Of a DNA stretch of 12,835 bases, positions 4,930 to 5,019 are shown in pieces. The position numbers were made by a program, and so were the translations under genes. Under the pieces are notes generated by a model. It was not told the DNA's origin. It did not search any database and saw nothing but the letters and a program-made list of their open reading frames with translations. Within the stretch, counting starts at the first letter, position 1. Each line of letters begins with the position of its first letter. Origin of the DNA: a virus (Duplodnaviria; Heunggongvirae; Uroviricota; Caudoviricetes); IMG/VR virus record IMGVR_UViG_2579778894_000012. One strand, 5' to 3'.

Positions 4930-5019
4930 ACAATATGTACCTCCGATATACATATTACATGATTGAGATGAACCTTCAAGATACTTGTACCCTATCGGTA
5001 CAAAGGTTTTAATTTCGTT
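4930..5019. promoter_or_regulatory. Divergent promoter/operator region between cro-like and cI-like genes
   Basis: Palindrome TTGTACC-N5-GGTACAA at 4985..5003; inverted repeat ATATGTA-N8-TACATAT at 4934..4955; plus-strand TTGTAC-17 nt-TTTAAT (4985..5013) puts the start site at the cI ATG (leaderless); minus-strand TTGAAG/TAATAT candidate for the cro promoter. Confidence 0.5.

Follow-up and report, generated by a model that had tools for sequence, protein, structure and literature searches.

The e14/SfV-type cI–cro immunity region of a lambdoid prophage: a predicted five-copy operator and a leaderless repressor transcript

Introduction

Which sites would a prophage repressor use when only 90 bp separate its gene from a divergent cro, and where does its message begin when the start codon lacks a ribosome-binding site? 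Both questions are raised by the cro–cI intergenic region (4930..5019) of a 12,835-nucleotide stretch of caudoviral DNA (IMG/VR record IMGVR_UViG_2579778894_000012), which we refer to as the window and in whose coordinates all positions are given. A preliminary description, made from the sequence alone, had drawn attention to two palindromes between the genes, to a promoter that would start transcription at the cI ATG itself, and to related motifs at a second early promoter, hinting that one repressor controls both.

The best explanation is that the region is the lysis/lysogeny switch of a lambdoid prophage of the e14/SfV immunity type. We put the probability of this reading at about 0.85. Such a switch is ordinary and already documented, and no new principle emerges from it: the e14/SfV immunity region is known, GenBank annotates an operator region within it, and the leaderless ymfK mRNA has been published. 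What is added here is an explicit map of five sites, a consensus for them, and their conservation across genera, together with that of the spacing between the −10 element and the cI ATG.

Results

Genes and identity of the locus

Between 4729 and 5776 the window carries, in this order, a cro-like gene on the minus strand, the 90-bp intergenic region, a repressor gene on the plus strand, a terminator and a near-consensus promoter. The lambdoid CI/Cro layout is thus present, with a repressor (N-terminal DNA-binding part and S24 domain) and a small Cro diverging 90 bp apart. The genes and their associated signals are as follows.

4729..4929, minus strand: cro-like gene (ymfT/croE homologue), an open reading frame for 66 aa with its ATG at 4929
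4940..4944, minus strand: Shine–Dalgarno sequence of cro, GGAGG, read from the sequence and lying inside the central spacer of operator O1 (see below)
5020..5694, plus strand: cI-type repressor gene (ymfK/cohE homologue), 224 aa
5706..5730, plus strand: intrinsic terminator after cI, with a 7-bp stem, four GC pairs and a T-run

In the cryptic prophage e14 of K-12, the repressor gene is named ymfK and cro is named ymfT. The cro product gave weak Pfam matches to YdaS/HTH_3 and a match to PHROG 35 (transcriptional repressor, E 3e-15); its homologue is annotated as cro in SfV and cdtI and as ymfT in Escherichia coli. A CII-like gene (Pfam CP76, PHROG 101) is located downstream of cro, and the prophage early genes in the window include an RdgC-like gene and an antirepressor module.

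The cI product matched Pfam Peptidase_S24 (1.5e-26) and PHROG 4 (transcriptional repressor). The determinants of self-cleavage are in place, namely Ala100-Gly101, Ser138 (in GDSM) and Lys176 (in FKR), and the serine and the lysine are nearly invariant in the alignment of homologues. In an AlphaFold model of mean pLDDT 78, the C-terminal domain superposes on lambda CI (2ho0 and 1f39, 36–37% identity over ~100 residues) and on its cleavage-site fragments (2ho0 and 2hnf); the model also matches lambda CI 3bdn. Residues and modelled fold together predict self-cleavage of the SOS/RecA type. The four-helix N-terminal domain superposes on the repressor Rep of PDB 5d50 (73 columns, rmsd 2.0 Å, 37% identity), and these 73 residues also match Rep at the sequence level (E 1e-3). 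Pfam did not recognise the domain as a helix–turn–helix, and a comparison of its sequence with that of Cro found no similarity. A shared recognition helix is therefore not arguable from sequence, and recognition of the same sites by the two proteins is taken here as an assumption.

The terminator that follows cI (−9.8 kcal/mol) is annotated in SfV and Ayreon and is conserved among relatives with compensatory changes in its arms. When the whole window was searched against Rfam at gathering thresholds, 4900..6145 contained no RNA family; the only hits, C4 and isrK, lie elsewhere.

The DNA from 4600 to 5900 is 99.8% identical to cdtI and 97.1% to SfV, and the ~1.3 kb around the switch is 95–99.8% identical to cdtI, Stx2c-converting phages, Ayreon, 2H10, SfV and SfIV. 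The cro–cI intergenic region agrees base for base with that of SfV, whose GenBank record (U82619) labels 69 bp between cro and cI as ‘putative operator region’ and also annotates the terminator 3′ of cI; the Ayreon record annotates a promoter past that terminator, which corresponds to pL. Against e14 of K-12 there are six intergenic differences (4946, 4948, 4967, 4992, 4995 and 5004), all of which lie outside the pRM −35 (TTGTAC) and −10 (TTTAAT), the 6-nt discriminator and the ATG. Of 5426 complete E. coli genomes, 1324 carry a ymfK/ymfT-type locus, annotated with these two gene names and 95–100% identical. With cI, cro and the operator DNA so nearly identical, the sequence predicts that the prophage belongs to the e14/SfV immunity group and would be homo-immune with its members.

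A wider homologue scan, limited to one genome per species, yielded 32 loci with a full-length cI homologue (42–99% protein identity) in genera that include Escherichia, Klebsiella, Pantoea, Serratia, Proteus, Rosenbergiella, Halomonas and Salinicola. Even in the Halomonas/Salinicola group, at ~42–51% identity, the general arrangement persists. Loci with cI identities of 56–99% were used for the conservation profiles of the regions between the genes (OR) and at pL (OL).

One operator motif at two early promoters

Judged from the sequence, the region is built on one 17-bp pseudo-palindromic operator, TGTACC-N5-GGTACA, predicted in five copies at two early promoters. The sites, with half-sites and spacer set apart and matches counted against the 12 consensus bases, are these.

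4936..4952: O1, TGTACC TCCGA TATACA, 10/12, over the predicted pR start
4969..4985: O2, TGAACC TTCAA GATACT, 9/12, weak, abutting O3 and lying over the pR −35
4986..5002: O3, TGTACC CTATC GGTACA, 12/12, overlapping the pRM −35
5740..5756: OL1, TGTACCCTTGAGATACA (TGTACC CTTGA GATACA), 11/12, in the pL spacer and reaching the −10
5760..5776: OL2, TGTATCTAAAAGAAACA (TGTATC TAAAA GAAACA), 9/12, over the pL start

Several copies of one operator thus overlap both divergent promoters, and the same operator recurs at pL, beyond cI. The first of the two palindromes described earlier, TTGTACC-CTATC-GGTACAA, is exact: a perfect 19-bp palindrome at 4985..5003, with O3 at its core. For the second, the arms ATATGTA and TACATAT are indeed present, but at 4933..4939 and 4949..4955 and separated by N9, not by N8 from 4934; the interval 4934..4955 with an N8 spacer is self-complementary at 2 of 22 positions, as against 18 of 23 for 4933..4955. 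It is better parsed as aTGTACC-TCCGA-TATACAt at 4935..4953, in register with the first. The weak third OR site O2 and the second OL site had not been included in the preliminary description.

The shared half-site was sought across the window. The pattern TGTACC-N6-RTACA, which was picked after the sites had been seen, occurs only at 4936, 4986 and 5740, all within OR or OL, where 0.21 sites are expected and none of 200 shuffles reached the observed count. When all 17-mers were ranked against TGTACC-N5-GGTACA, O1, O3 and OL1 came out on top (10–12/12); O2 and OL2 score 9/12, as do five other places in the window, and directly adjoin top sites. A blind repeat search grouped exactly these five sites, in a family D1 (spacings of 33, 771 and 20 nt), which places O2 together with O1, OL1 and OL2, and a family D4; it returned no other repeated motif in the intergenic region. 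Perfect palindromes with 7-nt arms are not rare in themselves, nine being present in the window against ~6 in Markov-1 simulations, so that their count is not significant and the argument for operators comes from the shared half-site together with conservation.

Conservation was assessed by phylogenetic footprinting. Across 26 distinct enterobacterial loci the TGTACC and GTACA blocks are near-invariant at O1 and O3, while the five-base spacer is free, its conservation being near zero at O3. At O2 a block TGAACC...CAAG...AC is conserved and the right half is degenerate, and O2 is the least certain of the five predicted sites. On the pL side, 27 distinct sequences share the order terminator, TTGACA, A TGTACC N5 GRTACA TAA TGTACC N5 G.AACA; the earlier suggestion that related TGTAC motifs occur at this promoter is thus borne out by two conserved operator copies, and the left half of OL2 reads TGTACC in most relatives. 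Half-site changes track the divergence of the protein: in Rosenbergiella both halves of O2 have shifted together, to GTTCC...GGAAC, and in a Halomonas metagenome-assembled genome (L034), whose cI is 45% identical, the half-sites are GGTAAT and ATTACC. Arms that stay invariant without compensatory change around a free spacer indicate protein-binding DNA sites, not RNA stems. We infer that the protein that binds at both early promoters is cI.

Counted from the cI start at 5020, O3 extends from −34 to −18 (centre −26), with O2 centred at −43 and O1 at −76. The centres of O2 and O3 are 17 bp apart, on roughly opposite faces of the helix, those of O1 and O2 33 bp and those of OL1 and OL2 20 bp. With spacings of 17, 33 and 20 bp, lambda-style pairwise cooperativity cannot simply be assumed.

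Promoters of the switch

The promoter elements and the cI start site are listed below.

4985..4990, plus strand: pRM −35, TTGTAC, coinciding with the O3 left half-site and identical in K-12 e14
5008..5013, plus strand: pRM −10, TTTAAT, at a 17-bp spacer from the −35 and without the usual A at −11
5020, plus strand: cI transcription start, the A of the ATG, taken from the K-12 ymfK start, the promoter being identical
4974..4979, minus strand: putative pR −35, TTGAAG, 16 bp from the −10 and in the O2 spacer
4953..4958, minus strand: predicted pR −10, TAATAT, read from the sequence in a conserved block ATTACA
5733..5760, plus strand: pL-type promoter, TTGACA-16-CATAAT, from a promoter scan, 11/12 to consensus

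The elements of the proposed plus-strand promoter, TTGTAC-17-TTTAAT, are present as described. TTTAAT ends six nucleotides before the ATG at 5020, which places +1 on the A of the ATG. The −35 matches the consensus at 3 of 6 positions. Of 30 loci compared, 27 have a 17-bp spacer and 24 have 6–7 nt between −10 and ATG; nnTAAT is conserved 6–7 nt 5′ of the ATG, and the stretch from TAAT to the ATG is unconserved.

A consensus promoter scan called pL and called neither pRM nor pR (8/12). The scan demands an A at position 2 of the −10, and TTTAAT was thus missed; pRM accordingly rests on the start site known from K-12 and pR on conservation; the predicted pR would start near 4946 on the minus strand. 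The TTG of the pR −35 (CAA on the plus strand) is conserved among the 26 loci. The pL promoter is near-invariant in 27 distinct loci and would start transcription near 5767. The RNA from 5767 to 5870 folds no better than shuffled sequences (z = −1.4). A put-type antiterminator like that of HK022 was considered for the region downstream of pL and rejected: the e14-type element had no significant similarity to HK022 27–32 kb.

A leaderless cI transcript

In a differential RNA-seq study of K-12 the ymfK start belongs to class I with a leader of 0 nt (Romero et al., 2014, Table S3; PMC4681348); Table S2 of the same study puts it 1 nt upstream, so that the leader is 0–1 nt, and ymfK is one of only five leaderless mRNAs that it reports (PMC4681348). 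Since the −35, −10, discriminator and ATG are identical in the window, the mapping can be transferred to the prophage studied here. By analogy with e14 of K-12, in which the start was mapped, a leaderless maintenance mRNA for cI is therefore supported in the window prophage; the mapped K-12 start does not lie well upstream behind a Shine–Dalgarno sequence, the finding that would have told against the preliminary description. The list of starts from the K-12 lysogen holds none near predicted pR or pL (PMC4681348), as expected if both are repressed in the lysogen.

The cI gene lacks a Shine–Dalgarno sequence, as had been claimed. The best pairing of its −20..−1 region with the 3′ end of 16S rRNA is −3.4 kcal/mol, against −10.8 kcal/mol for cro, and the means over 30 loci are −2.6 and −11.2 kcal/mol respectively; the cro Shine–Dalgarno sequence is kept in 29 of 30 loci, locus L028 having GGGGG. 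Reading back in frame from 5020, the window offers no start codon before the stop at codon −17. The start ATG is found in the window and all aligned relatives, with M1 and K2 nearly invariant. Over codons 1–27, diversity among relatives at codon positions 1, 2 and 3 is 5.3, 3.8 and 13.7, and this third-position variation from codon 1 onwards indicates that translation begins at the ATG at 5020.

Discussion

Alternative explanations

Two alternatives deny that the palindromic sites are operators for cI. Could the palindrome at 4985..5003 work as a plus-strand RNA hairpin or intrinsic terminator, for example against cI-sense read-through, rather than as a protein site? A terminator scan lists it, with a 7-bp stem and a 5-nt loop followed by AGGTTTTAAT (−7.0 kcal/mol), but its weak stem has only three GC pairs, and the T-run that follows is both interrupted and, among relatives, unconserved. 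The arms are invariant without compensatory changes and the loop alone varies, which is the signature of a DNA site. We rejected the terminator reading on these grounds and consider it hardly credible; moreover, the half-sites recur at O1, OL1 and OL2 with imperfect arms and no T-run, and the hairpin would be absent from the maintenance transcript if pRM starts at 5020. Very improbable, if less extreme, is the idea that the sites are bound mainly by Cro or by another factor (a Rha/Ash protein of the antirepressor module or a host protein) while cI uses other sequences. The absence of sequence similarity between Cro and the cI N-terminal domain, and the failure of Pfam to see a helix–turn–helix in the latter, would fit such an arrangement. 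Yet the sites lie over both lytic promoters, at just the positions where a prophage repressor needs to act, the half-sites change in step with the divergence of cI, as in L034, and the intergenic region offers cI no other repeated motif. Starts near predicted pR and pL are likewise missing from the published list for a K-12 lysogen that transcribes cI.

The other two leave cI on its operators and concern O2 and the cI message. O2 might be no operator, its conservation reflecting pR promoter elements (the −35 TTG and a spacer or UP-like sequence), in which case OR would have two sites; we judge this improbable, though less so than any other reading weighed here. Its 9/12 score is no better than that of five unrelated places in the window, its conserved CAAG is complementary to the pR −35 TTG, and its right half is degenerate in relatives. 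However, TGAACC is near-invariant at about −27..−22 of pR, a stretch in which promoter function does not depend on sequence, and the left half becomes TGTACC in Erwinia and Proteus. The joint change of both halves in Rosenbergiella and the grouping of O2 with O1, OL1 and OL2 in the blind search also speak for an operator, as does its position relative to the cI start, −43, which matches the −42 of lambda OR2. As to the message, most cI might come from leadered upstream transcripts of a pRE-like, CII-dependent kind, with the start at the ATG minor or unproductive. The CII-like activator gene downstream of cro suits this proposal, and lambda cI is expressed from both pRE and pRM. In addition, the K-12 list contains two cI-sense starts inside ymfL/ymfM, RVS_(III)-1203046 and RVS_(II)-1203132 (PMC4681348). 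Against it, the ymfK ATG start is class I, the highest confidence, and is the start nearest to the gene in a stable lysogen (PMC4681348); the −10-to-ATG spacing and the missing Shine–Dalgarno sequence are conserved across genera, which is hard to explain unless the ATG start is used; and upstream transcripts would be hindered by a plus-strand hairpin at 4804..4822 that resembles a terminator. We regard a predominantly leadered message as distinctly unlikely. The two routes are not exclusive, one serving establishment and the other maintenance, and a pRE-like upstream start probably also exists and complements the leaderless maintenance transcript.

How the switch may work

With cI acting at the five predicted sites, repressor dimers on O1, at the pR start, and on O2, at its −35, would shut off leftward transcription of cro, cII and the replication genes, and dimers on OL1, in the pL spacer and −10, and on OL2, at the pL start, would shut off rightward early transcription. 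Occupancy of O3 on the pRM −35, by repressor or by Cro, would lower transcription of cI, whereas repressor bound to O2 (centre at −43) may assist the weak pRM, as lambda CI does when it activates from OR2 (−42). Transcription from pRM would begin 7 nt after the −10, at the A of the AUG of cI, a step shown for the near-identical e14 of K-12 and transferred from there. SOS-triggered cleavage at Ala100-Gly101 would then release both lytic promoters. We infer the identity of the binder, the order in which sites fill, and activation as opposed to repression at O2 and O3. In the papers covered, our literature search returned no binding, footprint, reporter or mutational data for these operators; for ymfK, ymfT, cohE and croE likewise it returned no binding data, and iModulon and Reg-Seq papers treat YmfT as a putative regulator only.

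The details could differ from those of lambda, given that the best operator lies on the pRM −35 and that the spacings (17, 33 and 20 bp) are odd. O3 covers this −35, and the K-12 lysogen nevertheless transcribes cI from pRM. From Escherichia to Rosenbergiella three features of the layout are conserved: the strongest operator is at the same time the pRM −35, it abuts a weak operator at −43 at an out-of-phase distance of 17 bp, and the O1 spacer contains the ribosome-binding site of cro. These features, combined with an N-terminal domain like that of the 5d50 Rep, raise the possibility of a non-lambda form of autoregulation, in which a higher-order repressor assembly across O2–O3, or looping between OR and OL (~750 bp), would tune the leaderless promoter. 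We hold this to be unlikely and mention it as a tentative idea.

Comparison with known switches

The closest relative with a mapped start, e14 of K-12, has the same genes in the same order, the same five operator positions, and the same pRM −35, −10, discriminator and ATG. It differs in the right half of O1 (TATACA in the window, TGTACA in e14), in the O3 spacer (CTATC against TTAAC) and in the left half of OL2 (TGTATC against TGTACC); the sequence downstream of pL diverges from about 5777, e14 is defective, and the window prophage has other early genes, among them the RdgC-like one and the antirepressor module. The GenBank record of SfV contains neither individual operators nor the leaderless start, and SfV diverges from the window after OL2.

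Lambda shares the divergent cI and cro with three operators between them and the same operator again at pL. Its leaderless cI is the textbook case: the pRM mRNA starts at the AUG, and TAGATT, six bases and ATG reproduce the arrangement of −10, 6 nt and ATG seen here. The operator sequence, however, is unrelated, and the centres lie at −19, −42 and −66 from the cI start (23 and 24 bp apart) instead of −26, −43 and −76 (17 and 33 bp apart). OR3 of lambda overlaps the spacer and −10 of pRM, whereas the best palindrome here overlaps the −35; lambda has three OL sites against the two identified here; and the N-terminal domain of the window cI resembles the Rep of PDB 5d50. Unlike lambda, this phage group has no reported N gene (PMC3851460).

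Two further maintenance repressors of K-12 prophages, racR of Rac and dicA of Qin, have mapped leaders of 0 and 3 nt (PMC4681348). Their proteins and operators are unrelated to the switch in the window. To our knowledge, their products are not self-cleaving repressors of the S24 type. Rep of 5d50 (a Rep–Ant complex), from a temperate Salmonella phage, resembles the window cI in the sequence and fold of the N-terminal domain. It differs in the rest of the protein: its C-terminal part is another, where cI has an S24 autopeptidase with an Ala-Gly site, and, going by the title under which 5d50 is deposited, an antirepressor inactivates Rep.

Significance

The significance of these findings is modest. 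Gene callers often extend cI homologues upstream by 2–22 residues because the true start lacks a Shine–Dalgarno sequence, and the conserved spacing between −10 and ATG provides a rule by which misannotated cI starts can be corrected. About one in four complete E. coli genomes carries this immunity type, which controls medically relevant phages, among them Stx2c and Cdt-I phages and the Shigella serotype converters SfV and SfIV. For these, the consensus TGTACC-N5-GGTACA and the site map can be used to predict homo-immune prophages, and they supply defined targets for studies of induction.

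Possible transcription of cI from upstream, and the repressor start

A terminator-like hairpin followed by a T-run (AGCCAGCACAAAACTGGCT TTTTTAT) lies on the cI-sense strand within the cro coding sequence (window 4804..4822, plus strand). cI-sense transcripts arriving from upstream would end at this hairpin, short of cI. In K-12 e14, a published list of start sites contains two cI-sense starts, one of class III at U00096.2 1203046 and one of class II at 1203132 (PMC4681348). Both map in or close to the CII-like gene and ymfM (ymfL/ymfM). Gene order places their equivalents in the window at roughly the 4134 boundary and a short way upstream. 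It is possible that these two starts represent pRE-like establishment promoters.

Many repressor homologues in the databases carry 2–22 extra N-terminal residues before the conserved MKT start (P0004, P0018, P0024, P0031 and P0035). Gene callers have probably picked an upstream start in these cases, because the true ATG lacks a Shine–Dalgarno sequence.

A possible antirepressor module in the pR operon

Two Rfam matches, both above the gathering score, lie on the minus strand of the window:

3589..3676, minus strand, C4 antisense RNA (68 bits)
3701..3777, minus strand, isrK Hfq-binding RNA (60 bits)

Both (3589..3777) fall within the mechanically called ORF at 2989..4002 (minus strand), which encodes Ash and Rha domains and whose counterpart in phage cdtI is annotated as a ‘putative antirepressor’. 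This combination suggests that the pR operon carries an antirepressor module resembling P1/P7 immI or Gifsy isrK–anrP. The true start of the antirepressor is probably downstream of C4.

The region downstream of pL

Immediately after OL2, the second operator at the pL-type promoter, e14, SfV and many relatives share a conserved element. It is ∼60 nt long and consists of CAGGCAGGACGCCCACGAAGTAGCCGCC, a stem and GGATGATTCG, with compensatory changes at three of the stem pairs. Its positions in homologous loci from other genomes are as follows:

L004:2260-2322, post-OL2 element; also in L005, L007, L009-L012, L014, L018 and L023
L083:3095-3190, minus strand, post-OL2 element of K-12 e14

Phages of other immunity types (ST64B, SfII, ZF40, mEp237, SPN3UB and YeP1) contain related sequence. 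Comparison of the element with HK022 27–32 kb revealed no similarity. N-less lambdoid phages may carry this element as a leader RNA, either for processive antitermination or of another kind. The window lacks it, diverging from e14 and SfV after about 5777. From the pL start to the first long ORF (6146..7264, plus strand), which is RdgC-like, a stretch of ∼380 nt has no plus-strand ORF of at least 40 aa. The match of this ORF to Pfam RdgC begins at residue 73 and that to PHROG 724 at residue 68; its listed GTG start is probably too far upstream.

Operator-like sequences and operator specificity

Inside cI, TGTACCCTGTGGCGAAA (window 5385..5401, plus strand) matches the operator consensus at 9/12 positions, and its counterpart scores 10/12 in other E. 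coli loci. Since this stretch encodes the conserved PVPCG motif, coding constraint probably accounts for its likeness to an operator. In a Halomonas MAG (L034), repeats of the form ATTACC...GGTAAT, whose half-sites differ from TGTACC/GGTACA, lie upstream of a cI homologue that is 45% identical; operator specificity has apparently changed within the repressor family.
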